Below are positions 932 through 59,613 of a stretch of DNA of 64,000 nucleotides, piece after piece; within the stretch, counting starts at the first letter, position 1, and the number at the start of each line of letters is the position of its first letter. This DNA is from a virus (taxonomy: Duplodnaviria; Caudoviricetes). Both the position numbers and the translations under genes were made by a program. The notes beneath the pieces are model-generated. The model saw nothing but the letters and a program-made list of their open reading frames with translations, made no database searches and was not told the origin of the DNA. The stretch lies in the IMG/VR virus record IMGVR_UViG_3300032038_000003, positions 1 through 64,000 of that record; one strand, 5' to 3'.

Positions 932-945
932 TGGTCTAACGACCA
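932..945 (+). promoter_or_regulatory. Hairpin promoter candidate 1
   Basis: TGGTC-TAAC-GACCA, GATGAA at +9..14 after loop, upstream of ORF 977. Confidence 0.7.
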
Positions 946-976
946 AATGATGAATAATTATTAAGGAGGTCTAATC

Positions 977-1282
977 ATGAAAGACATTATTGTAAGAACT
1001 ATTAACAAGTATCAGACAGAGGTTATTGTAGAAGGTAGAAGAGTAGTATTAACTGATATGAAGAAAGTTAATGCTGCTAAGGCTAAGAGAAGAAAGGTTG
1101 GTAATATTATTATCAATACTGTTTTAGTAATCGCTTTTGGTGCATTAATGCTTTGGGAAATCTGGTTGTTCTTTACTTATGATGAAGGACACTGGGAGGC
1201 TGATTATGTTAATGAGGAGGGTCAGTTTATTGATATCGATGGCGATGGCGATTGTTATCATTGGGTTGACCCTGTTAACTAA
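977..1282 (+). CDS. Small single-pass membrane protein
   Basis: AAGGAGG SD; hydrophobic stretch IIINTVLVIAFGALMLWEIWLFF. Confidence 0.8.
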   Translation: MKDIIVRTINKYQTEVIVEGRRVVLTDMKKVNAAKAKRRKVGNIIINTVLVIAFGALMLWEIWLFFTYDEGHWEADYVNEEGQFIDIDGDGDCYHWVDPVN

Positions 1283-1976
1283 TCAGCTCTAAGAATAGAC
1301 AATAGCCCAGATATAGAATCTATGTTAAAAAGGTTTTTATTAGATCTTTAACAGATTATATATTAACCTTCGGTTATGGGGCGACAAAGAGAGTCGCCCT
1401 ACAGGGCATCGTTGTATCAGATGAAAAGAGCCAGTGAGAGTTTTCTCACTGGCTTTGCTTGCAAAGCAAGCAAAGTATAATCTATTTTAGCTTAAATGTC
1501 AATAGCATTAGACATTATTCTCTGGTTTATTTAATAAAATATGCTATCGAGTGCTGTTCGATAGTATATTAAGAGAATAAGTATATGCTGTCGCTAGGCG
1601 AGGGATCCTGGTCCCCCATAGAGAAATCTTTGATTCTTGGCTAAAATGTAGCTTATAGCTATATTATACTCTTTTCGTTTATTCTTCTGTCTATTCTATA
1701 TATTCCCCTATAGTGTATAAGTATCTTACCATATATAAGTACTCTTTTATCTCTTATATATTCTTGAGATTAGTTAGACGCTCTTATCCAAAAGTTAATC
1801 TATTCTCTATTCATTTTACTATGCTTTTGGATATTATTTATCGTCTTTGCTTAAAATAATATACACTATTCTTTTTGCTTTTGTGTAAGGGTAAGCTATA
1901 TTTCCTGTAGTTTTCTCTTACATTTTATATATATCACCTATTAACTTATTATTCATCCATAGAAAGGAGAACTATT

Positions 1977-3056
1977 ATGGAAAAGAAGAACAAAGAAATG
2001 TCACCCGTTGTTAAAGAGGTTCGTGAATCTCTTGGTAGAGATTACCACAGAGTATTAACTTGGTATCACATCATGCATCCTCACATTAAGAGAATGCGTG
2101 ATGAGCACTATCAGGAAATGGCCGCTCAGTGGAAACTCTGTAAAGCTGTTGAGGGTATGATCGAGATTGATGAAGAATCATCTTTATCTGCCTGTACTGT
2201 TGAAGAGCAGTATTTAGAGCGTACTTATCGCTTTTTCACCATGCTCTTTAATGGTGATAAGTTGGCTCAGCGTGATGACTCTGAAAAGAGAGCATATATC
2301 GCTGATTGTATGGCACAGTTTACCAGACAGACATCTACGGAGACTCTTCATAAGAATTCTATTTATTTACTGAAGATGTCTCTTGAGGATATCCAGTTTG
2401 ACTCTACTGGAAATGCTATCTTTGACTCTCGAAATGCTTCTGTATTTATTGGTGGCAATATTCAGAGTAAGAGCAAATCCATGCGTTGGGTAGCATCCTC
2501 TGAAGATGGAATTTCTCGTCTTCTTGAGAGTTATGGTTTATCCCAGGTTATCGTCTTTATGGGCGAACAGGGTAAGACCGATGAAGACAAAGCTACTCTG
2601 TTATCCACAAAGGAAAATATATTCCTTCATGGCATCACTGATATTGCTTCGGGCAAACACTATATGTGTTCTGCTCCTTCGGCATCCAGCACCCGTCACG
2701 CAGACTTTCCGTTTATTGAAGCGGATAGTCCAGCTGATGTCTTTAAAATCTGGTGCGAAATCACTGGATTTAAGACTATCGAAGATCTCGTAGCTGGAAT
2801 TGGGTCCTTCAAGGATGGTAAGTATATTGTCAATCTTGCTAAGCTTAAAGCGAGAATTGCAATGAGAGGTTCTAACTCTTTCGATACTTATCAGACTGTA
2901 CAGAATCCTAATGTATTGTGGAAGTTGAAGCATCCGAATGTTGATTATGTATCGGACGCTTCTGGAACTACTAAAGTACCATATAAGGGTATTACATCTC
3001 CTGGAGTTTTAGAGATGAAGAATCCCGATGGTACTATCACTACGGAGAGAGTCTAA
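1977..3056 (+). CDS. YonO/RdRP-like RNA polymerase, N-terminal part
   Basis: SASSTR and AKLKARIAMRGSNS match the S-x-S-Q-x-R and K-x-x-A-R-x-x-x-x-x-S motifs of cellular RdRP/YonO; GAAAGGAG SD. Confidence 0.7.
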   Translation: MEKKNKEMSPVVKEVRESLGRDYHRVLTWYHIMHPHIKRMRDEHYQEMAAQWKLCKAVEGMIEIDEESSLSACTVEEQYLERTYRFFTMLFNGDKLAQRDDSEKRAYIADCMAQFTRQTSTETLHKNSIYLLKMSLEDIQFDSTGNAIFDSRNASVFIGGNIQSKSKSMRWVASSEDGISRLLESYGLSQVIVFMGEQGKTDEDKATLLSTKENIFLHGITDIASGKHYMCSAPSASSTRHADFPFIEADSPADVFKIWCEITGFKTIEDLVAGIGSFKDGKYIVNLAKLKARIAMRGSNSFDTYQTVQNPNVLWKLKHPNVDYVSDASGTTKVPYKGITSPGVLEMKNPDGTITTERV

Positions 3057-3074
3057 TGGCTCTCTCCATATTTT
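3044..3074 (+). terminator. 10-bp hairpin with the ORF stop codon in its loop, followed by ATATTTT
   Basis: GGAGAGAGTC-TAAT-GGCTCTCTCC. Confidence 0.55.
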
Positions 3075-3146
3075 ACCTATCACTAATAATTTTAATTAGG
3101 GTGCAGAAAGGACATCCTTGGGTGAGAATCCCTAAAATGTTGGATT

Positions 3147-5861
3147 ATGATGAACAATAATACTGTTAAGGAACTCAGAGAGATGGCTAAGGTTGCTGGT
3201 ATCGTTGGATATAGCAAGATGAAGAAAGCTGAGCTTATTGACGCTCTTGCTAATGTTGCTGCTAACGAGATGGTTGAAGAAGTTGTTACAGAGTCTGCTG
3301 TTGAAGAGCGTAAGACCATTCCTGGTGATGGAATGATGATCTGCTCTTTCACCTATGCTGCTACTATGGCATGTGCAATGCGTATCATCACTGAGAATGA
3401 GTACGATGTATTCGTATCTCAGATCGCTACTGTTAATTCGCTTGAAGAAGCTTATGAGAATGTTAAGCTTCGCAAGCTTATCCAGAAAGTTCCTTCTGTA
3501 TTCCAGATTAGACATGAAGGATGTAAAGGTATCGTTGTTAAGTATCCTCTTGAGTTCATCGACGAGCTTAAGGATAAGGATCTGGTTATCACTGATGGAG
3601 CAAGAAAGTTCGCATCTCAGAACTGGGAAGAAGCTCCTTTGGAAGTATGTAATTACTTAAAGAGAAAGGATAAATGGGTTGCTCTTAATCCTCAGTTCAT
3701 CCAGGCTCTTAAGTTCGAGAATCCCAACGCTTTAATTCCCGTTGTGGATTTCTGGTTCAATAAGCTTGAGGAATCTGTAACTGATATCGCTAAAGCTCAG
3801 GAGTTCCATGGAATTATCTCTTCTGTAGATGGAGCAAGCGATACTAATAGCAACCTCGTTGTTGCTCTTCGTAACTCAAGTGACCTTGTTGATGATTTCC
3901 AGGTTATCAACTGGAGAAGACAGCAATACGAGAAGTTTATCACCGATATGAAGGTTGGTAGAGTTCTCGTTCCTGGTGAGTATACTTACATGGTATGTGA
4001 TCCAGCATACATGCTGAATTCTATTTATGGCCTTAACCTTAACGCCCTTGCATCTGGAGAATACTGGTTTAATAACCATGTAGGATTTGCTGGAGCATTT
4101 AGATCTCCTCTTATCGCTCCTTTCGAAGCACAGAAGTTCAATTGTGTTGAGAGAGAAGACTACTGGTTCTTCAAAGATATCGTAGTATTTAATGGCTATG
4201 ATGGTGCTTGGGAGAATATGGGCGGTGCCGATTTCGATGGCGACACTTGTGCTATCGTTCCCGACAATACAGATCTTGGCAAGATCATCGTTGATGGTAT
4301 CCGTTCTATGAACTATGTAGTATGGGAGCCTGGTCTGTCTGCTGTAAAAGAAGAGTTCTCTTGGGAGAATATGGCAAAGTTCAATGCTAAGGTTGCGAAA
4401 GTTGACCGTACTGGCATCATTACGAACTATGCATCCAGAGCCATGGATATCTCTAATCACCTTGAGTCTTGCATCTACTTTGCAAAGATGATGGGTTGTG
4501 TTGGTATCTATATGGTACATCCTTCTGAGGTTCAGAATTCTTCTGAAATGAAGCCTCACACTATGACTATTAATGGCGAGAAGTACTTCGCCATTCGTGG
4601 TCTCGTACATGCTACAGAGAAAGATGGCGTTGTTCGTTATGATAACGATGGCATCTATGGCATCAAGACATTTGACCAGGTTCAGAAGATCGCTGATGAA
4701 TATCTGGCAAAGGTTGAGTATCTTCGTCTTATGCAGGGTAGAGAGATTGACTCTGCAAAGACTGGTGTTGCTGCTGAAGGTATGAGTGGACTGGATTTTG
4801 TTGACTCTGTTAAGGTTGAATTCACTCCCCAGGAGATGATTACCAGAGTTGAGGTTCTTGGTCGTCCTGTAGCAAAGTTTGCTCAGCTGAACAAGTATCA
4901 GTCTCTGTCTCCTCTGGCAAGAGTACATGATTATGTTGAGCAGAAGGGCCTTGAATTCATGAATCGTTTTGCAAATGGTTCCGATAAGGTTGCTCTCCTT
5001 CTTAAGCTGTTATCAGCAGAAGAGAATGCTCAGCTTAAGATGAATGTTTCTTTTGCTGATGGACGCATGATGACTCTGCTTGACTATCTTAAGGCTCGTA
5101 AGTCTGAGTATGGTAAAAAGATGTCTGAAATCTTCAAGGCTGAATTACCCGATGAAGAACTTAAGGATGTCATCAATGGTCTCAAGACAAACGAGATTAA
5201 TACTCTTAACCAGCTTGCAGTAAACCTCAAGGTTTCTGTTGAGGTTATCGCAGTTGCTTGTTATATCGTTGCTTATACTAAGGACGGTAACTTTGGTACT
5301 GGTCTTACTTATGGCTGGTTACTCTTTGACGAGCTTCTGTCTGTATTCACAAGAAACAACAAGAAGTTTGAGCTTTACAGACTTCCTCGTTATGCTGAAG
5401 AGGTTTCAGTATCTGCTGGATATCTCTATGTAAATGAGAAGGAGTATGCTCCTATCGACGATGTTGATGATTGTGAGTATGTTCCTGTTCAGCTTATCAA
5501 TGGAAAGCCTTATGCACTGATCCACAAGAGAAGTGAAAAGGTTGTTGCTGTTGTTGCAAGCCAGAATGTTGGTGCTGTTTATACCATCGACATGATTTAT
5601 GGCTTCAAGTATTCTTGTGGTTCCAAGGACGAGTGGAAGAGAATCGTTAAGGAAAACGGTTATGTATTTACTGTTGACTTTGATGAAAACTCCAGACTGT
5701 CTGTTCTTGTTAACGGTGTTGTCATCGGTGCTATCAAGGCTACTGTTGCTGATCTTCACATTTCTGAGCTTGTTGGACACGAGGTAAAGGCTATTGGTTC
5801 TCCCGATTATAAGGAGACCGAGAATACTATCGCTAACCTCGTTGTTCGTGTAGTAAAGTAA
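3147..5861 (+). CDS. YonO/RdRP-like two-barrel RNA polymerase, catalytic part, with N-terminal Rho_N-like domain
   Basis: PGDG, FQIRHEGCKG, RSP and catalytic GGADFDGD motifs; N-terminal TVKELREMAK..GYSKMKKAELIDAL is Rho_N-like. Confidence 0.9.
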   Translation: MMNNNTVKELREMAKVAGIVGYSKMKKAELIDALANVAANEMVEEVVTESAVEERKTIPGDGMMICSFTYAATMACAMRIITENEYDVFVSQIATVNSLEEAYENVKLRKLIQKVPSVFQIRHEGCKGIVVKYPLEFIDELKDKDLVITDGARKFASQNWEEAPLEVCNYLKRKDKWVALNPQFIQALKFENPNALIPVVDFWFNKLEESVTDIAKAQEFHGIISSVDGASDTNSNLVVALRNSSDLVDDFQVINWRRQQYEKFITDMKVGRVLVPGEYTYMVCDPAYMLNSIYGLNLNALASGEYWFNNHVGFAGAFRSPLIAPFEAQKFNCVEREDYWFFKDIVVFNGYDGAWENMGGADFDGDTCAIVPDNTDLGKIIVDGIRSMNYVVWEPGLSAVKEEFSWENMAKFNAKVAKVDRTGIITNYASRAMDISNHLESCIYFAKMMGCVGIYMVHPSEVQNSSEMKPHTMTINGEKYFAIRGLVHATEKDGVVRYDNDGIYGIKTFDQVQKIADEYLAKVEYLRLMQGREIDSAKTGVAAEGMSGLDFVDSVKVEFTPQEMITRVEVLGRPVAKFAQLNKYQSLSPLARVHDYVEQKGLEFMNRFANGSDKVALLLKLLSAEENAQLKMNVSFADGRMMTLLDYLKARKSEYGKKMSEIFKAELPDEELKDVINGLKTNEINTLNQLAVNLKVSVEVIAVACYIVAYTKDGNFGTGLTYGWLLFDELLSVFTRNNKKFELYRLPRYAEEVSVSAGYLYVNEKEYAPIDDVDDCEYVPVQLINGKPYALIHKRSEKVVAVVASQNVGAVYTIDMIYGFKYSCGSKDEWKRIVKENGYVFTVDFDENSRLSVLVNGVVIGAIKATVADLHISELVGHEVKAIGSPDYKETENTIANLVVRVVK

Positions 5862-5865
5862 TATC

Positions 5866-5907
5866 TTGGGGGCATCCTGGAATACAGGGTGCTCCCAAAA
5901 ATTTTTT
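5866..5907 (+). terminator. Rho-independent terminator after RNAP
   Basis: TTGGGGGCATCCTG-gaata-CAGGGTGCTCCCAA followed by A/T run. Confidence 0.75.
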
Positions 5908-5928
5908 GCCCTAACGAGACGGGCATAA

Positions 5929-5944
5929 TAAAACTATCGTTTTA
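5929..5944 (+). promoter_or_regulatory. Hairpin promoter candidate 2
   Basis: TAAAAC-TATC-GTTTTA, GATGA at +9..13. Confidence 0.7.
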
Positions 5945-5976
5945 ATGATGATTTTAATTGCGAAAGGAGAATCGTT

Positions 5977-6444
5977 ATGCAGATACCTAAAAGTTATACA
6001 TCTTTATGGAAACAGATCAAAGGATTTATCCCCTCAGATGATATTGATAGTGAATTAGATTTCGGAGGTATTATCATTCCGATATCGAAATATGGAAGTG
6101 ATCCATATTATGACTTTAACGAAGGAGTAATATCATATCATATCCTTCCTAATGAGAATCATAAGGGATATAAGGGAAATTGGGATTTTGACTTTAATCA
6201 AGACTCTTATGAAGGATGGAAAAGCTGTCGTTCTCGTCGTTTCAATGACTTTGATACTAAGAAGAAAGACTATTCTCTGGAATATGCTGGTAAAAAGGTT
6301 AGTAGAAGAAAAGTGTACGACTGCTATGAAACGAGAACAACATATAAGTTTATCTATTCTTCAGATACAGAGAAAGTGATTTTGTATGTTACAATTGTTG
6401 AAGATATTGATATCGATGCATTTGCTATTGCAGAATATGAATAA
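5977..6444 (+). CDS. Hypothetical protein
   Basis: ORF with GAAAGGAG SD. Confidence 0.8.
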   Translation: MQIPKSYTSLWKQIKGFIPSDDIDSELDFGGIIIPISKYGSDPYYDFNEGVISYHILPNENHKGYKGNWDFDFNQDSYEGWKSCRSRRFNDFDTKKKDYSLEYAGKKVSRRKVYDCYETRTTYKFIYSSDTEKVILYVTIVEDIDIDAFAIAEYE

Positions 6445-6458
6445 TAGGGGGTGTTAAT

Positions 6459-7220: not shown

Positions 7221-7235
7221 CGAGATAACGAGAGA

Positions 7236-7251
7236 GCCGCCTATTGGCGGC
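7236..7251 (+). promoter_or_regulatory. Hairpin promoter candidate 3
   Basis: GCCGCC-TATT-GGCGGC, GGTGAA at +9..14. Confidence 0.7.
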
Positions 7252-7370
7252 ATGGTGAAACAGTTTTGTTCTCTCTTCTCCTGTCGGGGGATGATCTATG
7301 ATCATCCCCCTCTTTTTTTAAAACAGGCTGAAGTTAGACATGGCTATTTATTTATATGGAGGTATCGCTT

Positions 7371-7829: not shown

Positions 7830-7831
7830 TT

Positions 7832-7963: not shown

Positions 7964-7974
7964 GAGGGAGAAAT

Positions 7975-8307: not shown

Positions 8308-8313
8308 GGTTAC

Positions 8314-8329
8314 GCCCCCTATCGGGGGC
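8314..8329 (+). promoter_or_regulatory. Hairpin promoter candidate 4
   Basis: GCCCCC-TATC-GGGGGC, GATGAA at +9..14. Confidence 0.75.
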
Positions 8330-8382
8330 TTGATGAAAGTAATTTCAAATCACCTATCAACCAAAATAAGGAGGAAATCAAA

Positions 8383-8475: not shown

Positions 8476-8486
8476 GGAGGGTCACT

Positions 8487-9307: not shown

Positions 9308-9311
9308 GTCC

Positions 9312-9329
9312 TTTGCCCTATCGGGCAAA
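9312..9329 (+). promoter_or_regulatory. Hairpin promoter candidate 5
   Basis: TTTGCCC-TATC-GGGCAAA, AGAA at +12..15. Confidence 0.7.
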
Positions 9330-9376
9330 CGGAAGAACTATTAACCCTAATTTTTATGAAAGTGAGGTAAACGCTT

Positions 9377-9912: not shown

Positions 9913-9930
9913 TGCGACCTATCGGTCGCA
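9913..9930 (+). promoter_or_regulatory. Hairpin promoter candidate 6
   Basis: TGCGACC-TATC-GGTCGCA, GATGAA at +9..14. Confidence 0.75.
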
Positions 9931-9961
9931 CGATGAATATAATAATATCTTTTCCACGCTT

Positions 9962-9977
9962 GCGACCTATCGGTCGC
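9962..9977 (+). promoter_or_regulatory. Hairpin promoter candidate 7 (tandem with 6)
   Basis: GCGACC-TATC-GGTCGC, GATGAA at +9..14. Confidence 0.75.
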
Positions 9978-10062
9978 TTGATGAATAATATTATTTATTC
10001 AAAACTGTAAACAAACCCTAAATTTTGCATCGTGCTTAAATGCACAGAAAGTGAGGTACACT

Positions 10063-11719: not shown

Positions 11720-12250
11720 ATGGCTTTAACACAAGAAGACAACATTCAGATGCAGAAACAGCAGAACGGCTTATTAAATATCGATGCTGTTAAGTATTAT
11801 TTTGAGAACTTAAGACCAGCACTTGAGAAGTTTAACAAGACTTATCATACTGATCGAGAGTTGAATCGTACAATCGTAGAGGTTATGAATAAGGCAGACA
11901 GTGCTGCAACTGAAAAGAGATATCATGACCTGGAAGATGCGTATGCTAATCTTTTATCTGGTGTACAGGATCGTTCTTATATGACTGCTGGGCCAATGAG
12001 ATATGGTACTGAAGCAGAGAAGCAAGCAGTTGTAGAACTTATTGAGAAGTTCAACGATCTTTCCGTAATATTAAAATACGAACGTGAACCAGCAACAGAA
12101 GAGCATTCCGTTCGTGAAAGACTCAACTATCAACCACCTAACGGTGACATTGAGGGATATAATCTTGATGATTTATCCAATAGAGGACCTAAAGAAAATA
12201 GAGAGCGTATCCCTAATCTTAATGTCGAGAAAGACAAATATGCTTATTAA
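11720..12250 (+). CDS. Hypothetical protein
   Basis: ORF with SD. Confidence 0.75.
   Translation: MALTQEDNIQMQKQQNGLLNIDAVKYYFENLRPALEKFNKTYHTDRELNRTIVEVMNKADSAATEKRYHDLEDAYANLLSGVQDRSYMTAGPMRYGTEAEKQAVVELIEKFNDLSVILKYEREPATEEHSVRERLNYQPPNGDIEGYNLDDLSNRGPKENRERIPNLNVEKDKYAY
12135..12146 (+). promoter_or_regulatory. Hairpin promoter candidate 8 (intragenic)
   Basis: CACC-TAAC-GGTG, G at +12. Confidence 0.45.
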
Positions 12251-12285: not shown

Positions 12286-13260
12286 ATGTTCGAAAATTTT
12301 GACCCACGAAATGATGATGATTTAAAAAGACTGTTTAGCTATCTTGAGAAAGATAAGTTTAACAGTCTTTCTTTTTCTGATCAAAACTCAGTTATTGATA
12401 CTTTAATCAGCATCTCTAATAAAGATTGTGGTGATTCAACTGTAAAGACAATTGGAATGATGAAAGGTTCCAATGGTTTCACCAATTTCGATCTTCAATC
12501 CATTATAGACAAAATGGGTTATGAACCTTTTAGAGAAATGATGCGTGAAGCTATTTCAAAAGGTGGACTTACAACCAATTCTGTCAATGCATCAGAAATT
12601 ACAAACCTTGTAGAGAAAATGAAAAACGGAACTCTTACTGAAAAAGAGAGAGAGGCACTTGATGCTATTATGAGCCATGAACATCTTCATTGTAACGATC
12701 AAGAAGACGTTCAGTTCTCTACATATTCTATCGTTCATTTGTATACTAACTTGTTAGATCAGTCAATCAAAGATAAGGAAGTTACTCTTTTAAGAGATGC
12801 AGAACCTTTTATCAATGCTGCGTATATTACATTATTAGCTTCGCTTATCTCTAAACCAGATAATGCAATCGGTAAAATGTTCGACAAGCATGGCTTTGAG
12901 AAAGTACAAATGGGTATCATTGATCTTACTGTTAAATTTTCAAATATGATTATTGATTACAGTAAGGATAATAATATTGCACCAGAAAGAACACTGATTG
13001 CATTGGCAAATGTAATTAAGATTCTTGCTGGTTCATTAGATACTTCATTAGATGCTTATCCAGATGATATGCTTGAAGATGTTTTATCTCATGTACTTGC
13101 TGCTGTTTATGATATTGATTCACCTTCATCAGTAGATGAATTACGAAAAGGTTCCAAAGACGATAAGGAAAACAATGATAGTACCAACAAATCGGCTAAC
13201 GCCGACAAAAAGGAATCTCAAAGTGATAAAGATATAAGAAAATTATTACTTGATGATTGA
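12286..13260 (+). CDS. Hypothetical protein
   Basis: ORF with SD. Confidence 0.8.
   Translation: MFENFDPRNDDDLKRLFSYLEKDKFNSLSFSDQNSVIDTLISISNKDCGDSTVKTIGMMKGSNGFTNFDLQSIIDKMGYEPFREMMREAISKGGLTTNSVNASEITNLVEKMKNGTLTEKEREALDAIMSHEHLHCNDQEDVQFSTYSIVHLYTNLLDQSIKDKEVTLLRDAEPFINAAYITLLASLISKPDNAIGKMFDKHGFEKVQMGIIDLTVKFSNMIIDYSKDNNIAPERTLIALANVIKILAGSLDTSLDAYPDDMLEDVLSHVLAAVYDIDSPSSVDELRKGSKDDKENNDSTNKSANADKKESQSDKDIRKLLLDD
13192..13205 (+). promoter_or_regulatory. Hairpin promoter candidate 9 (3' end of CDS, upstream of RNA region)
   Basis: TCGGC-TAAC-GCCGA, GGA at +12..14. Confidence 0.6.
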
Positions 13261-13571: not shown

Positions 13572-13596
13572 TAATGGAATTTAGAGTTACTATTTT

Positions 13597-14331
13597 CTAT
13601 AAGGTATATACACTACCCTAGTGCAGATTGACTAATCATCATGCTAGGATATTGTCCAGACGCACGAACGAAAACAGAAGGATACTTTTGTTACCGAGTC
13701 GTTATGCGATGCTATAAGAGCTTGCTCGAAGGCGGAACATTGAATGGGGAATCCCAAAGTATTGGACGGTAGTGTATTTATATCGAGAGCGTTAGTGTGA
13801 CATGCTTGTGGTTGTCGTAATAGGAGTGAAAAGCGTTCATCGGTGTCTGCTTGCAGATGCTTATGGATGAATCTGTAACTTAACGCAGATATACTCTACC
13901 TTGATAACTCACCAGTCTGGTAAACTGGGGGAGTATTAGAAGTTCAAGGAAACACCAAAACCAAGACAATTCGCCGTGAACCATAGTAATATGGGTATAA
14001 CGCAAGCATAAGTCGCAAGTAGCCCAAGGCGAAAAAAACTTTCATAATGCTTCATATAGGAAAAATATGAAAAATTGAAAATCTGAATGATTTGGGTGAA
14101 AGCTGGGGGTATCAATCCCTCATGAGTGGTTATAGTATGTAGGTAGCACCACCCTTGCTTCGGCATGAGGTAGGAGCACCACTGCTATACATGGGAAAGG
14201 CTTCGGCTGATTACTGGTGCAAGAAGTTATAGGGTAGCTCCTTATAGCTCAGACTTGTATCCTCATTCGCATAATAAACATGGTTGATATAATTGTAAGG
14301 TGAACAAAAGCCTAGTGTGTATACCTTATAG
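13597..14331 (+). ncRNA. Large structured ncRNA, ROOL-like
   Basis: 19-bp closing helix 13597-13615/14313-14331; no credible ORF; many hairpins; adjacent to tRNA. Confidence 0.65.
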
Positions 14332-14431
14332 AGCGTAGTAGCTCTGATGGTTTTTTGGTCAAACCAATACCTCTTACTTCTGTGGGGAAAACAGAGGCGT
14401 AAAGCGGTGCGAACGTTATCGCATCGCATTT

Positions 14432-23759: not shown

Positions 23760-23769
23760 CCCTAACGGG
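23760..23769 (+). promoter_or_regulatory. Hairpin promoter candidate 11, upstream of helicase
   Basis: CCC-TAAC-GGG, GAA at +12..14, right after a terminator. Confidence 0.6.
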
Positions 23770-23821
23770 CATATTTGGAACTATTATTACATAAAATCTA
23801 TAAAAGGAAGGTACAGACGTT

Positions 23822-32780: not shown

Positions 32781-32792
32781 CTACTAACGTAG
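32781..32792 (+). promoter_or_regulatory. Hairpin promoter candidate 12
   Basis: CTAC-TAAC-GTAG, AGAA at +12..15, upstream of ORF 32824. Confidence 0.6.
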
Positions 32793-32823
32793 CAATCATA
32801 GAAAAACGTAAAGGAGGCTTAAT

Positions 32824-34092: not shown

Positions 34093-34690
34093 AGAAGTCA
34101 AAAAGTTTAAGATTCCTAATACACTTGAACTATCAAATTTTGGTGGCGTACAATACGCTATGTGTCTTGGTGCTATATATAGAGATAACAACAAGAACTA
34201 TCAGTATCTCCCAGAGTATTCTATGGGATACATCAATAGTGATATTACACCAACAAAGCTTATTAGTTTTTGTGAACTTCACAAGGATCTTATTATTAAA
34301 GACAAAACATATGTGAATGGTCATTTTGCTAATATCTATTACATTAAATATATTCGAGATGAAAAGCCTATGTTGGTTAACGAATATGTTAATTTTAATC
34401 GAAATTTTGTCGATTTAGAACTAACATTTAATGAAAATGGATATTACAGCGTCAACGAACTTCACATTGATTTGTCACCTAACACTTCTATTATTAGAGC
34501 GATAGAATCGTTGTTTTCTAACGAAAACATTGAGGCTATTCCTTTTATCTCTACCGACAATAATAATTATTATATTTCTTACTATGATGATTACGGTAGA
34601 GAGAAGAAATATCGCTATCAGAATATTATACAGATATTTGACCGCATTGTTAATGTACGGTTAATAGGCTGTAAAGAAGTGGAGAGTTGA
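34046..34690 (+). CDS. Hypothetical protein
   Basis: ORF. Confidence 0.7.
   Translation: MVKMVVLRLENKLTDKEVKKFKIPNTLELSNFGGVQYAMCLGAIYRDNNKNYQYLPEYSMGYINSDITPTKLISFCELHKDLIIKDKTYVNGHFANIYYIKYIRDEKPMLVNEYVNFNRNFVDLELTFNENGYYSVNELHIDLSPNTSIIRAIESLFSNENIEAIPFISTDNNNYYISYYDDYGREKKYRYQNIIQIFDRIVNVRLIGCKEVES
34512..34529 (+). promoter_or_regulatory. Hairpin promoter candidate 13 (intragenic)
   Basis: TGTTTTC-TAAC-GAAAACA, G at +12. Confidence 0.55.
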
Positions 34691-37567: not shown

Positions 37568-37579
37568 CGCCTATCGGCG
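37568..37579 (+). promoter_or_regulatory. Hairpin promoter candidate 14
   Basis: CGCC-TATC-GGCG, GGA at +12..14, intergenic. Confidence 0.7.
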
Positions 37580-37619
37580 TATTTTTGGATTTCAAAAATA
37601 CAGAAAGGAGCATGTTTGA

Positions 37620-45058: not shown

Positions 45059-45475
45059 ATGTACAAATATGTTAAGGGCATCACAGTATTAAGTGAAGAT
45101 CGAATGCCAAATGCGTTAGAGGTAGCACAAGAATACAATCTATGGATGCCATTAACAGATTCTATGACCCCTAACGGGGAACTCATAGAATTCTTAGTTA
45201 AGGCTTACATAGAGAAAAACAATTATAAGACGAGCGAATACTATTATATCAATCCTTATAATGTTTCTTTCCCTGTATATCCATGGAAATTTATAGGACC
45301 GATTATGGATGAATTTATCGAGTATCTTGAGCAAAATAATATAGTAAAAGATAAAGAAAAGATTTATACCATAGGAAATATAGATTTTATGTATTATGAC
45401 GAGCCTCGCCAAGAATGCAAAATAATAAGCTTAGAAGAATTTAAAAAGCGAAAGGAAGGAAAGCATCATGATTAA
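45059..45475 (+). CDS. Hypothetical protein
   Basis: ORF. Confidence 0.7.
   Translation: MYKYVKGITVLSEDRMPNALEVAQEYNLWMPLTDSMTPNGELIEFLVKAYIEKNNYKTSEYYYINPYNVSFPVYPWKFIGPIMDEFIEYLEQNNIVKDKEKIYTIGNIDFMYYDEPRQECKIISLEEFKKRKEGKHHD
45168..45179 (+). promoter_or_regulatory. Hairpin promoter candidate 15 (intragenic)
   Basis: CCCC-TAAC-GGGG, AGAA at +12..15. Confidence 0.5.
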
Positions 45476-50774: not shown

Positions 50775-50786
50775 TTGCTAACGCAA
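50775..50786 (+). promoter_or_regulatory. Hairpin promoter candidate 16, upstream of dnaE
   Basis: TTGC-TAAC-GCAA, GACGAA at +9..14. Confidence 0.65.
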
Positions 50787-50816
50787 GGAAGACGAATACT
50801 TTGAAAGGAGAAAGTC

Positions 50817-53800: not shown

Positions 53801-54284
53801 TGATAAGAAGTATGATAGTAAACAGAAATTGGCACTTGAAATGTTCTATATGGGTGCATATATATCAGAGCATCCACTTGATAAGTTCCCTTATATCGAC
53901 CTTGATGCTGCACAAGAAGGCGAAAAGGTTCGTATAGGTGGAATAGTTACAGGAGTAACCAAGAAACAAACAAGAACTGGTAAAGATTATCTTGTAATTA
54001 AGTTTAAGGGAAAAGATGATATCGAAAGAAATACAAATATGTTTTTCGAAGATAGAGTTAAATCGCTTGAGCAAGACCTTAAGAAGAATCAGATTATTGT
54101 AGTAACTGGTACATATAGTCAGAGGTATCACAATATTAATGCTTCTAATATTAAAATCCAGATAGACAAGAAACAAATGCTTCAGCAAGAAAATTTACAG
54201 ATCAATACAGTACAGAATCAACAGGTTCCAGTAGGTATGCCAGTCGTCCAAGCACCAGACATGTTCAAGGGATTATTTGATTAA
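50817..54284 (+). CDS. dnaE: DNA polymerase III alpha subunit
   Basis: PHP HNHT/TDHG, GRGSAAGS, FPDVDTD, KIDVLGL, YSFNKSHS. Confidence 0.97.
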   Translation: MKKQFAYLHNHTKFSIQDAMPSPKDYVDKVYEINQTSNDYECIALALTDHGNISVLPQQYNACLKPDDPNRKIKPLFGFEAYHCVDVNNNPNGDRFHMVLLAKNQKGLENIYQIASHGGMNIVKGRTKNFPVTDLDFIKNHGEGVICLTACIAGIIPQMILNGKETDAIDLISKLKIYVDELYLEVQPLDIPEQLLVNEAMVRLSQSTNTKLVMTCDAHYIEKSDKQYHNLFKEISHQKPFTTENYLRTPEEMEQYCLQYNIPLEAITNSAEIANMCDVDPKPKDHRALLPIYPCPVGYDESSYLRELCIQFLNDKIIEKKITEPEKYIKEMLYELDVICNAGFAGYFLILWDWFKWCRDNDILTGPGRGSAAGSIVSYVLNITKVDPIKNGFYFERFLSPERLEFPDVDTDIPRDKRADAINYLLGKYGKENVSQIVTFGEYKVKNTIKAVLSKYNCPIVEANKITKSLPDMVDGKAVTFDLLEHRHNNPDDYDSWEETDLKTLDKAWETLEEVFQQYPQVYDALKHISGCYNNTGIHAGGVIICNKPINQNGQVMMGSETAVLPILQFEMGDLDFFGFLKIDVLGLKTLDTIKYAMDLAHLNYDWYDSEDYTDPEVYRMLREGETTDVFQMAKYSPTKMISDFNVTNIEGLCAVNAGNRPGPLEKDKNTGKSMVDLYIDHVKTNTPEDWGNSDVNEILKQTYGCIWYQENCMMLGRVMAGYSMGGADSRIRKVLGKKKVKMIPEIKNEFIYGKKSIFDEDHNVIGMSDEPSDYCEGAVNRGYDLQLCEKIFDNMAAFAKYSFNKSHSFCYGVLAYKTAWLSYHYPIEFAIANCTINEKEEDIISTLASARKRKIRVLPPDINKSQVDFSNDNGAIRYGIKAIKGVGSRVIDFLRDYKLMDNVPFQNLDDFYSRIHNTSNPIVSSLINSIQQQTGKASPNPLKKDVEIALILSGCFDFQEKNRFTLVNYYISNIRKENPSTIKIMGEDKKFPLDDKKYDSKQKLALEMFYMGAYISEHPLDKFPYIDLDAAQEGEKVRIGGIVTGVTKKQTRTGKDYLVIKFKGKDDIERNTNMFFEDRVKSLEQDLKKNQIIVVTGTYSQRYHNINASNIKIQIDKKQMLQQENLQINTVQNQQVPVGMPVVQAPDMFKGLFD

Positions 54285-54286
54285 GG

Positions 54287-54333
54287 TTGATTATTGCCCG
54301 ATAATGTAATATAATGTTACATATCGGGCAATA
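54287..54333 (+). promoter_or_regulatory. sigmaA-like promoter embedded in a long palindrome
   Basis: TTGATT-17-TATAAT overlapping TTATTGCCCGAT..ATCGGGCAATAA. Confidence 0.5.
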
Positions 54334-54350
54334 ATTGTAAGGAGAATCCT

Positions 54351-54590
54351 ATGAAAGCAGAAGATATTGAGTTTATTGTAAACAACTACAAAAACGAAAA
54401 GCCTAGAATACAGGAAGAGATTAAGGATGAATTATCAGAACAAGAAACCATTCAGATATATAATGAGTTGATTCAAGTTTTGAGTAAGCACAATGTATCG
54501 TATAAGTGTGCTTTGAACATATCTATATCTTTAATGTATGCTTTTATGACTGGTGCAGCAGAATTGTACGATAATGAAATGAATCCCTAA
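54351..54590 (+). CDS. Hypothetical protein
   Basis: ORF with SD. Confidence 0.7.
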   Translation: MKAEDIEFIVNNYKNEKPRIQEEIKDELSEQETIQIYNELIQVLSKHNVSYKCALNISISLMYAFMTGAAELYDNEMNP

Positions 54591-54596
54591 CGGGAT
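54583..54596 (+). promoter_or_regulatory. Hairpin promoter candidate 17; loop TAA doubles as stop codon
   Basis: ATCCC-TAAC-GGGAT, GG at +12..13. Confidence 0.7.
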
Positions 54597-54647
54597 AACA
54601 AAGGTATTTTAACCATTCCAAATCAAAATTGAAAGGAGAATAGTAAA

Positions 54648-55244
54648 ATGGTTAACACAAATAATTTATGCGTTTTTGAAGGTAGAGTTGCAAAAGATCC
54701 TAAGTTTAGTCAGATTAATGGACAGAATGGTACAATTGATAAAGTTGTATTTGATTTGGTAGTAGACAGAGGGATGAATGCACAGCAGAGACAGAACGCA
54801 CAGACTAATCAGCAGCAGACAGCTGATTTTATCCATTGTTCTATGATCGGTAACCAGGTTAATGCCTTTAGACAGTGGTGTCCAAAGGGAAAGGCTGTCA
54901 AGGTATTATGCCATTATACACAGTATACTTATACAGATAAGCAGACTGGTCAGACACAGTATGGACATCAGTTTGATGTCGACAATTTTGGCTTTACAAC
55001 AGCAGATGCAAAAGCATTAGGCGACGGCAGCAATGCTGGTGGCGGTAACTATGGACAGAACAATGGTGGCGGATACGCTCAGAACAACAATGGTAACTAT
55101 GGGCAGAATAACGGTGGAAATTATGGTGGTCAGCAGAATAATAACTATGGCAATAACCAGCAGAATAATGGAAACTTTATGAATGCTCCACAGCCACAGA
55201 GCAACTTTGATATGTTCAGCGATAATCCAGCATCACCGTTTTAA
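54648..55244 (+). CDS. ssb: Single-stranded DNA-binding protein (replicative)
   Basis: GRVAKDP, ADFIHC, G/N/Q-rich tail ending SPF. Confidence 0.9.
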   Translation: MVNTNNLCVFEGRVAKDPKFSQINGQNGTIDKVVFDLVVDRGMNAQQRQNAQTNQQQTADFIHCSMIGNQVNAFRQWCPKGKAVKVLCHYTQYTYTDKQTGQTQYGHQFDVDNFGFTTADAKALGDGSNAGGGNYGQNNGGGYAQNNNGNYGQNNGGNYGGQQNNNYGNNQQNNGNFMNAPQPQSNFDMFSDNPASPF

Positions 55245-55270
55245 GTATAAGTAAGTAGGAGGGTTCTTTT

Positions 55271-55624
55271 ATGAATCAAGAAGAGTATCAAAATGCTATT
55301 AATGAAGAAGTAAAAGGATCTGAATCTGCTGTAAGAAAGATGCTTCTATATTACGTATCAGCTTTACAATCAGTTGGTGTTGAAGATGTGAAACAATATA
55401 TTGCAACTCGGATAGGCGAAATGATTAGTCTATCCGAGGAGCAAGTTCAGTTTATTCTTGCGAATTTCAACAAAGAAAATAAACTTATAGAGAATCTTGA
55501 TAACAGCATTCAGCTTCTTGAGAAAATGAGAAAAGAGGAAAAGTTGGATTTAGAGTCTCTTGATATTGTTATTCAAGTGTTAAATCTAATTATGAAAGAT
55601 TATGATAACTTCAAATTACAATAA
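55271..55624 (+). CDS. Hypothetical protein
   Basis: ORF with SD. Confidence 0.7.
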   Translation: MNQEEYQNAINEEVKGSESAVRKMLLYYVSALQSVGVEDVKQYIATRIGEMISLSEEQVQFILANFNKENKLIENLDNSIQLLEKMRKEEKLDLESLDIVIQVLNLIMKDYDNFKLQ

Positions 55625-56072
55625 TAATTATGATGATTCAACAGCTGTTGGGTTGCATAATCTAAATCAGTTAAATCAGTTATATAATACAACCAATAGT
55701 ACAAATAGCACTGTATGGGAAACGGTATATACAAATTATGTTCCGTTTCAGAATCAGTATGTCTATGATACAGGCATTCAATGGAAGTATACTGCTGATA
55801 TTAGAGGATTAAGAGAGTATATGTTCGCTAATAATCTGTATAAAGAATTAAGCGATATTTTGTATGATCTATATCTGATTACTACTGATGAACAAGATTT
55901 TGAAGATAGTTTGTATCGTAATACTTTAGATTTAATATACGAATTTACACGTCCAGAACAAGCATTTGATGATTTATTAAACGAAGAGATATTTGATTAT
56001 AGGTCATTAAATAAAGTTATAAGCGAAGTAATAGAAGCATACCGAAACAATTTTGAAACGGAGGAGTTTTAA
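55602..56072 (+). CDS. Hypothetical protein
   Basis: ORF. Confidence 0.65.
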   Translation: MITSNYNNNYDDSTAVGLHNLNQLNQLYNTTNSTNSTVWETVYTNYVPFQNQYVYDTGIQWKYTADIRGLREYMFANNLYKELSDILYDLYLITTDEQDFEDSLYRNTLDLIYEFTRPEQAFDDLLNEEIFDYRSLNKVISEVIEAYRNNFETEEF

Positions 56073-57241
56073 TGGCTGAACAGAAAACACTAAATGAAAA
56101 AATGAAATTATTAAACGGTCTCCAGAAACAAGTAAACAAAAAGTATGGAGAACGTGCTTTAATGACTGGTAAAGAGGCTATTGAGAGTGGTGCGTTAGAT
56201 AATGTTATTACCGCAACACCATCTTTAGAGTTGAACCAGGCACTATATTGTGGTGGTTTAAGTGGAATCGTAGAATTATTTGGACCACCAGCATCTGGTA
56301 AGACAAGTCTTGCTATTGAAACTCTTGCACAGGCACAGAAGAACGACCCTAACTTTATTGCGTTATGGGTTGAAACAGAGCATTCAATTACTCAAGACAT
56401 TCTTGAACAGCATGGAGTAGATATCTCCAGAATCGCATTTGCAGACCAGGCACAAGTAGATAGTGCTGAAAGTGTATTGGATATTGCATATGCTGCTATG
56501 GTTCAGAATGCAGTCAATATGGTTATTGTTAACTCTGTTGCTGGCTTCTTGCCAAAGCAAGAATTTGAAAGCGATTTAGATAAGCAGAACGTAGGACGTA
56601 CTGCTCAGTTAATGTCTAAATTGTTCAGAAAGATTACTGGTCCAGCTGGTAAGAATAAAATCAATGTAATCTTCATCAATCAGTTAAGAGATAAGATTGG
56701 TGTTATGTTTGGTGACCCTTCTACTACTACTGGTGGTAGAGCGTTGGCATTCTATGCTGATCAGAGAATCAGAATGAGTGCTTTAAAGATACAGGCAGCA
56801 GACCCAATCACAGCCAATGAAGGTGTAAAGATTCATTGTATTGTTCAGAAGAACAGAAGGGCTGGTAAGCATAATCCAAATACTGAATGTACTTATTATG
56901 CTTTATTTGACCAGGGTATAGACTCTACTGTAAGTATCCCTCAGTTACTTGCAGATAAGGGTATTTTTGAAGTGTCTGGTCGTTGGTGGTATTATCCATC
57001 AAAAGATAATGTACAGTCACTTGCTGGTGTTGAATGTAAATTCGGTTCTAAGAGCGATTTACAGAATCTTTTACGCACAAATGAAGCTTTCAAGAATGAA
57101 GTAAAGAATTTATTAAGCGTAAGCGAAGTTTCCGTTGAAGAGAAAGAAAGAATTGATGCAGAAGAAGAGGCTAATAATGCCTTTATGATGGATGCTGAAG
57201 CGTCGTTACAGAACGAAGTAGGAGACGAGAGTGACGCTTAA
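56072..57241 (+). CDS. recA: RecA-like recombinase
   Basis: GPPASGKT, FINQLRDKIGVMFGDPSTTTGGRALAFYA. Confidence 0.95.
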   Translation: MAEQKTLNEKMKLLNGLQKQVNKKYGERALMTGKEAIESGALDNVITATPSLELNQALYCGGLSGIVELFGPPASGKTSLAIETLAQAQKNDPNFIALWVETEHSITQDILEQHGVDISRIAFADQAQVDSAESVLDIAYAAMVQNAVNMVIVNSVAGFLPKQEFESDLDKQNVGRTAQLMSKLFRKITGPAGKNKINVIFINQLRDKIGVMFGDPSTTTGGRALAFYADQRIRMSALKIQAADPITANEGVKIHCIVQKNRRAGKHNPNTECTYYALFDQGIDSTVSIPQLLADKGIFEVSGRWWYYPSKDNVQSLAGVECKFGSKSDLQNLLRTNEAFKNEVKNLLSVSEVSVEEKERIDAEEEANNAFMMDAEASLQNEVGDESDA

Positions 57242-57292
57242 TTTGCGTCACAATCGTCTTTTATTTATAATATCAAGTAAAGGAGAAAGAAA

Positions 57293-57970
57293 ATGGCTGG
57301 AGAAAAAGAAACAAAAGAAGTCATTGAGGAGGAATCTAAAGGCTTTGATTACAGACATGCAGCGTCTTTCAAGGTGTCTGATAAGTTTAAAGATAGATTC
57401 ATGACACGTTCTGCTGGCGGTCCTACAATGAGCGTAGATGGTCTGGTAGCATTAGGCCATGTAAAAGGATTATGGAAAATCGATGTAGAGATTTTACAGT
57501 ATCCAAATACAGATAATGGCAGAGAATGTGTATGTAAGGCTATCGTAGGCGGATACGGATGGGATCCGATTGAAGAGAAAGTAATCAGAGTAGAATTTAC
57601 AGATATTGGTGATGCAAGTCCAGCGAATACAAATGGACAGGTTGCAAAGGCTCTTATCCGTATGGCTTCTACAAGAGCAATCGGTAGAGCATTAAGAAAA
57701 TATACCAATATCGATATGGTATGTACCGAAGAACTTGGTGAAGATGATATCTCTACTGAATCAATGGAAGAAATTGCTTCTGTACAGATGGTTGATCAGC
57801 AGCAATTAATCACCATGAAAGGTTTGATTCAGCAAAAGGGTATCGACAAGGCTACTTTTGAAGCAATGCTTACCAAGACTTTTAATACAAGCGATTTCCA
57901 AAGATTGACTTTTGAACAGGCTAATACAATGATTCAAATTCTGAACAATTATGTTGCACCTTCGAAGTAA
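57293..57970 (+). CDS. Rad52/Sak-like single-strand annealing protein (putative)
   Basis: GDASPAN..IRMASTRAIGRALR. Confidence 0.6.
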   Translation: MAGEKETKEVIEEESKGFDYRHAASFKVSDKFKDRFMTRSAGGPTMSVDGLVALGHVKGLWKIDVEILQYPNTDNGRECVCKAIVGGYGWDPIEEKVIRVEFTDIGDASPANTNGQVAKALIRMASTRAIGRALRKYTNIDMVCTEELGEDDISTESMEEIASVQMVDQQQLITMKGLIQQKGIDKATFEAMLTKTFNTSDFQRLTFEQANTMIQILNNYVAPSK

Positions 57971-57995
57971 TTAGGTATCAAACAACGAAAGGAGT

Positions 57996-58805
57996 TTGTG
58001 TATGAGGAACTTTACAAAACGCCTTTCTGAGTTTATAAACCACATTCGAACCGACAAAATACGACAGCGACAGCTTTGTGCTGTCGCATGTATTTTCGGA
58101 ATGTTTATCGTATTACACGTTTATAGCTCAGAGGCACATTCTCTTGATAACGCTGATAGCGTTGAAGAAGAGAACATTACAGTTGTATCGAAAACTGCTG
58201 ATACAGCTTATACTCCTACTGCTGGCATTAATGCCGAATTAGGCAGAATTATGCGAGAAGTAAAAGCAGAAGAATTAAATGGTGATATCGAACCAAATGA
58301 AATCGTCCTAGTAATGGAAGAAGAAGTAAAAGAACCAGAAGAAACAAAGCCTGTCAGAGAGAATATCTTATATTACGTCGTAGATGACGATTATACTTTT
58401 TATCTTGATAATGAATATCAAGACTATCTTTGGAACAAACTTAAAGAATACAACAATACGGAGTTGTATGAAGTCTGTCTCGCCCAAATGTATCATGAAT
58501 CACAATTTGAAAAAGATGTAGTAAGTGCTACTAATGATCATGGCTTATGCCAAATAAATGCTGGTAATTATTCATGGTTACACGAAACATTAGGGATAGG
58601 CTCACTTGACGATCCATATGATAACATAGATAGTGGTGTATATATCCTTGTGACTAATGTGGAAAAGTATGGTAGTATAGAAGAGGCATTAGTTGCATAC
58701 AATCAAGGATATTGTGGAGAAGTAAAATCAACTAAGTATAGTAGATGCATCTTAAACCATGATATGGACTGTCTGCACATACTGGAAATCGAAGAAACAA
58801 ATTAG
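57996..58805 (+). CDS. Membrane-anchored lytic transglycosylase (SLT domain)
   Basis: HESQF, GLCQIN, DPYDNI, ALVAYNQG. Confidence 0.85.
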   Translation: MCMRNFTKRLSEFINHIRTDKIRQRQLCAVACIFGMFIVLHVYSSEAHSLDNADSVEEENITVVSKTADTAYTPTAGINAELGRIMREVKAEELNGDIEPNEIVLVMEEEVKEPEETKPVRENILYYVVDDDYTFYLDNEYQDYLWNKLKEYNNTELYEVCLAQMYHESQFEKDVVSATNDHGLCQINAGNYSWLHETLGIGSLDDPYDNIDSGVYILVTNVEKYGSIEEALVAYNQGYCGEVKSTKYSRCILNHDMDCLHILEIEETN

Positions 58806-58825
58806 GTAGTTAGGAGGAAAGCAAT

Positions 58826-59317
58826 ATGATTGTTCAGTGTTCTGTTGAAGAAGTAACAAAAGTAATTGATTATGCAAGAAGTGGTAAGTTAGTTTACCTT
58901 AAGGTAGAAAAGAAAGATGATTTCTTAATCATGAATTATTCATTGATTGATGAAGTTCATAATGAATCCGATATTGAACGGATCAAGAACGTCCAGAAAA
59001 CATCTATCAAGACCACTTTCGACTTAATCAACAAGCTTACTCAGCTTAACGATATAATCGTTAAAGACATTAAGCCGCAAAGTTATACTCTTACATATGA
59101 ATGTAAAGCTAATGCAAATGCTCCAATATACTCTCACTCAAGTATATTACCGAATGGAGTATTCGACGTACAGACAAGACAGGCAATTAACGTCGATTGG
59201 GATAATGTCTTTACTGATAAGCTTGAGGAAATCGTGCCTGGATTATACAGTAAGAAATCTTCTAAGAAGTATGTTCCAGTGACGTACAAAGAACTTATTG
59301 AGATTTTACGTAACTAA
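58826..59317 (+). CDS. Hypothetical protein
   Basis: ORF with SD. Confidence 0.7.
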   Translation: MIVQCSVEEVTKVIDYARSGKLVYLKVEKKDDFLIMNYSLIDEVHNESDIERIKNVQKTSIKTTFDLINKLTQLNDIIVKDIKPQSYTLTYECKANANAPIYSHSSILPNGVFDVQTRQAINVDWDNVFTDKLEEIVPGLYSKKSSKKYVPVTYKELIEILRN

Positions 59318-59325
59318 CACCAAAA

Positions 59326-59574
59326 GTGGTAAAGATTATGAAACATGAATTGTTCACTGATGACAACGGTGAGAACATAGTTGTCATAACTGAGTGGGGA
59401 ACGAAGCAGAAGACAGAAAAAGAGGCTATTCGTTATGCTGCAAACTATTATTTCAAGGTTAAGAAAGATAAGTTGCAGTGTATTCCAGTCTATATGACGG
59501 ATAAGAATGCAGACGAGATCCACTTCTCCAACAAGAAAGGTACTAAAAAGTACTTGGGCGTGTGCTATAAATAA
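59326..59574 (+). CDS. Hypothetical protein
   Basis: ORF. Confidence 0.6.
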   Translation: MVKIMKHELFTDDNGENIVVITEWGTKQKTEKEAIRYAANYYFKVKKDKLQCIPVYMTDKNADEIHFSNKKGTKKYLGVCYK

Positions 59575-59599
59575 TTATTATAGAACAGTCTAAGGTATA

Positions 59600-59613
59600 C
59601 CACCTATCGGTGG
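59600..59613 (+). promoter_or_regulatory. Hairpin promoter candidate 18
   Basis: CCACC-TATC-GGTGG, GAA at +12..14, intergenic. Confidence 0.7.

Follow-up and report, generated by a model that had tools for sequence, protein, structure and literature searches.

A strand-specific family of covarying hairpins in the early arm of a jumbo phage genome: candidate template-strand promoters for a YonO-like RNA polymerase

What are the small hairpins for that recur, always in the same orientation, through a 64,000-nt stretch of phage DNA (positions 1 to 64,000 of IMG/VR record IMGVR_UViG_3300032038_000003, hereafter the window), and which RNA polymerase (RNAP), if any, reads them? A first-pass annotation of the window had picked 18 such inverted repeats by eye and proposed that they are structure-defined promoters with +1 at a purine 12 nt past the loop, read by a YonO-like two-barrel RNAP encoded nearby or by a virion RNAP encoded elsewhere. 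At each of the 18 coordinates the stem of a perfect inverted repeat begins. The closing C-G pair and the TATC or TAAC loop (TATT at 7236) described there hold in 18/18, as do purines at +12 and +13, with G at +12 in 15/18 (positions +n are counted from the end of the hairpin loop). The elements are listed here by stem start, with stem length, loop and the bases at +12/13; L005 and G001 to G003 are jumbo phage relatives treated below.

932..953, +, 5-bp stem, TAAC, GA; upstream of open reading frame (ORF) 977 and the RNAP genes
5929..5951, +, 6-bp stem, TATC, GA; directly past the RNAP gene terminator
7236..7258, +, 6-bp stem, variant loop TATT, GA; TAAC in L005 and TATC in a strain contig
8314..8336, +, 6-bp stem, TATC, GA
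9312..9335, +, 7-bp stem, TATC, AG; orthologous copies with other stems in L005, G001 and G002
9913..9936, +, 7-bp stem, TATC, GA; first of a tandem pair before a gene resembling single-stranded DNA-binding protein (SSB)
9962..9984, +, 6-bp stem, TATC, GA; second of the tandem pair
12135..12155, +, 4-bp stem, TAAC, GG; within the 3' part of ORF 11720-12250; 6-bp orthologue in L005
13192..13213, +, 5-bp stem, TAAC, GG; within the 3' end of ORF 12286-13260; orthologue in L005
13554..13577, +, 7-bp stem, TATC, GG; ROOL RNA 16 nt further on
23760..23779, +, 3-bp stem, the weakest, TAAC, GA; between a terminator and a UvrD/PcrA helicase gene
32781..32801, +, 4-bp stem, TAAC, AG; Shine-Dalgarno sequence (SD) at +23
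34512..34535, +, 7-bp stem, TAAC, GG; inside an ORF, no orthologue available, less certain
37568..37588, +, 4-bp stem, TATC, GG; heads a MoxR/VWA block
45168..45188, +, 4-bp stem, TAAC, AG; inside an ORF; similar position in G002
50775..50795, +, 4-bp stem, TAAC, GA; heads the DNA polymerase III alpha gene
54583..54604, +, 5-bp stem, TAAC, GG; orthologous copies in G001, G002 and G003
59600..59621, +, 5-bp stem, TATC, GA

The family keeps to one strand and exceeds what shuffled sequence yields. A scan of the window without hand-picking found 42 CTAWCG hexamers on the + strand, 16 of which bear stems of at least 4 bp, against no C-TAWC-G hairpin with such a stem on the - strand. For these 16, a flank-swap null gave a mean of 1.1 and a maximum of 6 in 20,000, and a block-shuffle null a mean of 0.35 and a maximum of 2. 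The predicted purine enrichment was also borne out, with two purines at +12/13 in 17/17 hairpins with a stem of at least 3 bp (background 0.31, p = 2e-9) and in only 9/25 stemless hexamers. Across the whole genome of 210,314 nt, C-TATC-G and C-TAAC-G are the top tetraloops among stems of at least 5 bp. The copies span 0.9-66.7 kb on the + strand of the early/replication arm, including one extra copy at 66,688 beyond the window, and a whole-genome scan found no hairpin bearing the signature in the 130-kb opposite structural arm.

Other details of the first-pass annotation fared less evenly. The copies were said to lie often just after a terminator; a terminator-like stem precedes only 2/18 (5929 and 23760), and most copies begin 3-80 nt past an upstream stop codon. 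The stated lack of U-tracts is correct for 17/18 (at most 4 T in 8 nt) and fails for 37568, where 6 T in 8 nt follow the stem; as a family the hairpins do not show the U-tract after a G-U-tolerant stem that marks intrinsic terminators. Of the intragenic copies, to which doubt had been attached, 12135, 13192 and 45168 have counterparts at orthologous places in relatives; 34512 stays less certain. The TATT copy at 7236 likewise has a counterpart at the orthologous place in relatives, and the strain contig shows TATC at 7242. A terminator at 7286-7310 (+) lies about 30 nt past this element, so that any RNA begun here would be very short or subject to attenuation, and a hairpin with a T-run stands at the equivalent place in G002, L008 and L015.

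The genome is that of a jumbo phage whose capsid, tail and replication genes are syntenic with those of 0305phi8-36, a jumbo phage of Bacillus thuringiensis, and related sequence is present in cattle-gut runs. The element occurs in every jumbo relative that has sequence downstream of the RNAP gene (L005, whose RNAP is 89% identical, L008, L010, L011, L012, L015, G001, G002 and G003). On the early-arm sense strand, G001, G002, G003 and 0305phi8-36 each carry 22-23 hairpins with a TNNC loop, and the genome studied here (G000) carries 11 at a stricter cut-off; in complete genomes this loop class far exceeds any other. Overall copy number is 18-25 over 65-75 kb per genome. On its minus strand the late arm of G001 and G002 has TNNC hairpins too; these lie inside a gene, have no counterpart in G000 and were taken as chance or unrelated.

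At orthologous sites the stems swap and still pair, for example at seven sites common to the window and L005. Before the orthologues of ORF 37620 the stems read CGCC, AATAACTCCC, AAAACTCCC and CGCCCTC, and the orthologous copies of element 37568 in G001, G002 and G003, with differing stems, sit at -43 to -47 from the ATG. The tandem pair 9913/9962 is kept in G001 and G002; the SSB-like gene behind it is a weak match only. In all, 142 elements have perfect 5-bp stems of differing sequence. The loops found across relatives are TATC, TAAC, TGTC, TGAC, TAGC, TACC and TCGC, so that only the first T and the last C are fixed and the template strand reads GNNA. The closing pair is C-G throughout the jumbo relatives except in 0305phi8-36 and some L010 copies (T-A). 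In 0305phi8-36 there are 18 copies of the form stem-GT-TCGC-AC-stem (GTTCGCAC core), all on the early-arm sense strand, with TG at +12/13. Seven C-AAA-G triloop hairpins occur in G004, a more distant lineage, and YGAA stands at +14..17 in five of them, so the plan of hairpin, fixed spacer and G is wider than the GNNA loop. The feature is real, is conserved over a wide lineage and is selected for Watson-Crick pairing and a loop-anchored purine.

Does selection act on DNA or on RNA? Within the five loop-proximal pairs, a G-U (G-T) pair occurs in 2/144 element stems vs 11/39 terminators (Fisher p = 7e-7); the elements compared have the same loop and closing pair, 142 with five perfect pairs and 2 with one G-T. 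This avoidance favours a hairpin formed at the DNA level. Extrusion of the hairpin promoters of coliphage N4 needs a C-G closing pair and a loop with 5' G and 3' A on the template strand (PMC4496689), and the invariants of the present elements, template 5'G..A3' and C-G closure, match these bases. Furthermore, GCGNNAGC mini-hairpins are unusually stable as DNA and much less so as RNA (PMC13037366). In an energy model the template arm folds 0.1-0.8 kcal/mol better than the other arm. T-loops in DNA are more stable than A-loops, and in G004 this would again favour the template strand.

Position and spacing point to transcription. In five genomes 71/103 elements are intergenic vs 17 expected, and in 66/67 close cases the next SD lies at +17 or later (mode +22 to +28), once at +12 and never earlier. 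G occupies +12 or +13 in 123/142 elements and is unmoved by stem lengths of 5-8 bp, which indicates a ruler anchored on the loop; a G at +12/13 is found in 70/83 TNNC hairpins vs about half of those in other loop classes. Position +11 is mostly T, which before the purine would give the pyrimidine-purine step typical of start sites. No -35/-10 match for sigma-A was found at canonical spacing (best 4-6 of 12), and a search of five genomes, with a positive control, found no sigma factor.

Two kinds of RNA begin shortly downstream of an element. The ROOL RNA at 13593..14332 (+) (RF03087, 234 bits) begins 16 nt past +13 of element 13554 and is presumably its transcript. This ROOL RNA stands beside six tRNA genes in a phage of lytic type, and rumen RNA library contigs are deep over it, a depth that may include other organisms. 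In relatives, four tRNAs begin at +13, +12, +11 and +10 (L008 21853, G003 27123 rotated, L012 23659 and G001 22228 rotated, respectively). With a start at +12/13, two of the tRNAs would be leaderless and need no RNase P. The tRNA and ROOL positions tie the element to RNA 5' ends, and this cuts both ways.

It would also be expected if the signal acted in RNA, a UNNC-loop hairpin guiding a nuclease or other protein to cut about 10-13 nt past the loop, making the 5' ends of mRNA, tRNA and ROOL RNA and leaving the upstream RNA a protective 3' hairpin. Such processing fits a loop-anchored ruler, the tRNAs that begin between +10 and +13, one in each of four genomes, and the location of most copies directly past a stop codon with a terminator between in just 2/18. 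However, G-U pairs are nearly absent, unlike in RNA stems of the same genomes, and the invariant bases fit DNA GNNA rather than UNCG or UNAC, since loop positions 2 and 3 vary. Elements 5929 and 23760 follow a strong terminator, so that no transcript would reach them, and presence of the hairpin tracks an RNAP family across unrelated phage types. We therefore regard RNA processing as unlikely, although it survives better than the other alternatives considered below.

The proposal of a structure-defined template-strand promoter thus finds comparative support in orientation, intergenic bias, SD placement, a G independent of the stem, G-U avoidance, the GNNA loop ends and the lack of sigma-A sequences, and we consider the element likely to be a promoter of one kind or another. 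The exact start is less settled than the first-pass annotation had it: against its +1 at the +12 purine, the fixed purine of 0305phi8-36 is at +13. Transcription would most likely start at the purine 12-13 nt past the loop, possibly as early as +9/+10.

Which polymerase, then, would read such a promoter? The window encodes a non-virion RNAP in two parts.

1977..3056, +, N-terminal part of the non-virion RNAP, 359 aa; aligns to residues ~40-385 of single-chain 1,250-aa homologues
3147..5861, +, catalytic part of the non-virion RNAP, 904 aa, with Rho_N, PF05183 and DFDGD; orthologue of gp99 of 0305phi8-36

The first ORF supplies the N-terminal third that the second lacks, and over their whole length the two correspond to homologues that form one chain of 1,250 aa. 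The split (359 + 904 aa) is found here and in close strains, most relatives having a single chain of 1,210-1,320 aa. The PF05183 match scores 72 bits vs a cut-off of 23.8, with D362, D364 and D366 invariant, and the model of the catalytic part has a QDE-1/RDR2 fold (predicted local distance difference test score 84; Foldseek E 2e-11 to QDE-1). A terminator-like stem at 3044-3067 (+) overlaps the stop of the first part, between the split halves, and the Rho_N domain has shifted to the start of the second.

A second candidate lies outside the window. The tape-measure slot (genome 136,882-147,057; L001:6383-16558, -) encodes a protein of 3,391 aa in which the motif RYP..NLDFDGD is invariant in 24 homologues, at a locus syntenic with gp146 of 0305phi8-36. 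Its model gives weak-to-middling fold matches, the best being two-barrel RNAPs (Z 7.5), and a Foldseek search with the model gave no match at E <= 0.001. From motif and model this protein is probably a virion RNAP. It is found in gut relatives and in G001-G003 and not in gp146 of 0305phi8-36. Both polymerases found are of the DxDGD two-barrel type; a sequence search of the PDB found no match for either, and a search of G000 for T7-fold RNAP (PF00940) found no match, its positive control also giving none. In contig ERZ27256846 the non-virion RNAP is 89% identical to that of this phage and the virion-RNAP region only 50%, hinting at exchange.

The virion enzyme might be the reader, as in N4. That precedent, the invariant motif in 24 homologues, the two-barrel fold matches (at a middling Z of 7.5), its presence in G001-G003 and the copy that precedes the non-virion RNAP gene all speak for it. 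The distribution of the hairpins speaks for the other enzyme. In 0305phi8-36, a complete genome with 18 copies, the only DxDGD in a long ORF is that of gp99, and gp146 lacks DxDxD and does not resemble the virion-RNAP profile. Hairpins also occur in G005-G008 (L109-L112), small HK97-type prophage-like elements of about 40 kb by CheckV that encode a 920-aa YonO-like RNAP (24-26% identical) beside a rep-like gene. Here C-TAWC-G hairpins with a G-run at +14 cluster before the late operon, one copy immediately preceding the SD of the portal gene in G005 and G008, and in G005-G007 a cluster of four copies lies past the rep-like gene. The G006 record, which reaches from the integration end through a full-length tape measure of 962 aa, has the hairpins and no second DxDGD. 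Since 0305phi8-36 and these prophages bear hairpins with no detectable virion enzyme, the hairpin appears to follow the gp99-type RNAP.

Placement along the genome agrees with this. Nearly all of the roughly 20 copies over 70 kb lie downstream of the non-virion RNAP gene, heading replication genes, one lies just upstream of it in most genomes (also in 0305phi8-36, L008, L012, L015, G001 and G002), and genes further upstream lack them, a pattern expected of middle promoters with autoregulation. We consider reading by the virion RNAP improbable; of the two readers first proposed, the evidence favours the YonO-like (gp99/QDE-1-type) enzyme, the virion RNAP existing outside the window as had been allowed for.

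Two further elements lie near the RNAP genes. About 2 kb upstream, a reverse-oriented TNNC hairpin is conserved in five relatives (G001 8332, G002 7982, L008 7530, L015 8197 and L014 9186) and was not found in G000; it could be a terminator, or a source of antisense RNA across the pre-early genes. Upstream of the RNAP genes in the window, at 771-815 and 1460-1502, a palindrome ending in AGYATA is followed after 17 nt by TGTCAA. Read from the minus strand, it matches a sigma-A promoter almost perfectly (TTGACA-17-TATRCT) and is directed away from the RNAP gene. The same element is present in L005, L010, L014, L015, G002 and G003, with a TNNC loop in G002, G003 and L015, and could be a divergent host promoter, bringing about supercoiling or shut off by the hairpin, or a virion-RNAP signal.

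A reader other than the phage RNAP acting alone would be host RNAP guided by a cruciform-binding activator of the phage, or the phage RNAP helped by such an accessory protein. Cofactors serve both N4 RNAPII and the middle transcription of T4 (PMC4496689), and positional evidence cannot separate direct from assisted reading. The elements show no -10/-35 likeness at the expected spacing, however, and they co-occur with the RNAP in phages that otherwise share little; we hold assisted reading to be about as improbable as reading by the virion enzyme. Least probable of all are signals outside promoter function, whether primase, primosome or origin sites (ssi/G4-type), for which there are the mini-hairpins that prime in G4 and ssiA (PMC13037366) and the four copies past the rep-like gene in G005-G007, or terminators specific to the phage RNAP, for which there is the special terminator motif of the P23-45 virion RNAP (10.1101/2022.12.01.518664), since the copies lie in one arm only, 20-60 nt before start codons and kept before the same genes, with one immediately ahead of the portal SD in G005 and G008, and if they were terminators a promoter would not fit between them and SDs at +17.

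Hence we lean towards N4-like template-hairpin middle promoters read directly by the gp99-type RNAP. The inverted repeat would extrude where the DNA is negatively supercoiled or locally melted. The template arm, which ends in a stable d(GNNA) loop closed by C-G, would persist and the weaker non-template arm would be melted, possibly by SSB. N4-type hairpin promoters need gyrase supercoiling and SSB. The RNAP would then bind the loop and the first 4-5 bp regardless of sequence, and RNA would begin at a fixed distance from the loop. The copy upstream of the RNAP genes could provide positive feedback once the virion or host enzyme had made the first molecules.

Several observations weigh against direct reading by the gp99-type RNAP. 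Without help, extrusion is difficult for stems as short as 3-4 bp. The tRNA-Leu of G001 at +10 and the tRNA-Asn of L012 at +11 begin upstream of the fixed purine, which would need an earlier start or read-through; processing would fit too. Four cattle-gut metatranscriptome runs consist of contigs only, which cover the region in related strains and show no starts or strand; they were not counted as evidence on transcript level or start position. The triloop of G004 and the prophage G-run at +14 make spacing and loop lineage-specific, so that GNNA is not universal. The genome also encodes the probable virion RNAP, a divergent virion enzyme is possible in 0305phi8-36, and the prophage records G005-G008 are 50-64% complete by CheckV.

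Furthermore, no such hairpin family was found in SPbeta or in 72 related YonO loci, nor in the flanks of PMBT24, Perkons, TR-TP1, c-st and BUCT082; YonO, the only member of the wider family whose enzyme has been tested, thus makes no obvious use of it. Between 60,330 and 60,575 of SPbeta, a region bracketed by sequencing primers, a single TNNC hairpin occurs, within the upstream primer. The YonO start (168 position 2,225,998) is placed approximately, at SPbeta ~60,450, and an imperfect repeat close to that point was not counted. A long non-coding stretch behind the YonO start (L036 14154-15834 = SPbeta 59,153-60,833) is hairpin-rich and conserved in SPbeta relatives. In a quick tree the jumbo enzymes form one group and the prophage enzymes lie nearer the YonO side, with long branches for gp99 and L025, which allows both a single origin with losses and two origins.

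How does the element compare with known promoters? It resembles N4 P1-P3, read by the virion RNAP (PMC4496689), in its inverted repeat of free sequence, its template 5'G..A3' loop closed by C-G, its fixed distance to a G and its stem, which is short and GC-rich and has an AT-rich spacer behind it. It differs in its tetraloop, N4 having a triloop, and in the purine at loop +12/13 rather than about +10; the three-base loop centred at -11 that defines the N4 type is replaced here by a four-base loop. N4 has three copies at the first-injected genome end, whereas here about 20 copies over 70 kb head middle genes, and the N4 reader is a T7-fold virion enzyme whereas the candidate reader here is a two-barrel non-virion enzyme. 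Most likely, then, the element works like an N4 hairpin promoter yet stands outside that family.

In 0305phi8-36, Hardies et al. 2007 (PMC2147016) described a 14-copy, 21-bp phage-specific promoter candidate in the same arm, middle-promoter-like and perhaps read by gp99. They treat it as a linear motif, and their text has no hairpin, covariation or template GNNA loop. This candidate appears to be the present hairpin, unrecognised (18 copies in our scan vs the published 14). SPbeta YonO (Forrest et al. 2017, PMC5467207) belongs to the same broad RNAP family (PF05183, QDE-1 fold), and its authors left promoter recognition open; it differs in transcribing late genes from one start, in its tree clade and in having no TNNC hairpin family near yonO. 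Thermus phage P23-45 (gp96/gp64) similarly combines a virion RNAP in the tape-measure slot with a non-virion two-barrel RNAP in one genome, but uses linear promoter motifs (10.1101/2022.12.01.518664). The AR9 non-virion RNAP is likewise a two-barrel phage enzyme that recognises the promoter template strand, but, as far as the sections of its description consulted go, it is multisubunit and reads a uracil-containing sequence motif with no hairpin (PMC5449584). We found no publication on hairpin-promoter recognition by a two-barrel RNAP in a search that covered few subscription journals.

The widest form of the proposal is that a two-barrel RNAP of the QDE-1/RDR branch, to which the eukaryotic RNA interference polymerases belong, dispenses with sigma, binds an extruded template mini-hairpin and measures from it to the start site. 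The 0305phi8-36-like jumbo phages would have this mode in common with small prophages unrelated to them, the loop co-evolving with the enzyme, and it would have arisen independently of N4; we think this may equally well prove right or wrong. For one branch of the YonO-like single-chain RNAPs it gives a specific and testable answer to how promoters are found, with a cultured phage and host in 0305phi8-36 and B. thuringiensis. That phage offers 18 predicted sites, and its relatives give a natural series of loop variants. If the proposal is true, a compact orthogonal promoter with a freely recodable stem would be at hand, hairpin promoters would have evolved twice, on unrelated polymerase folds, and the closest prokaryotic kin of the RNA interference polymerases would read nucleic-acid structure to start transcription.

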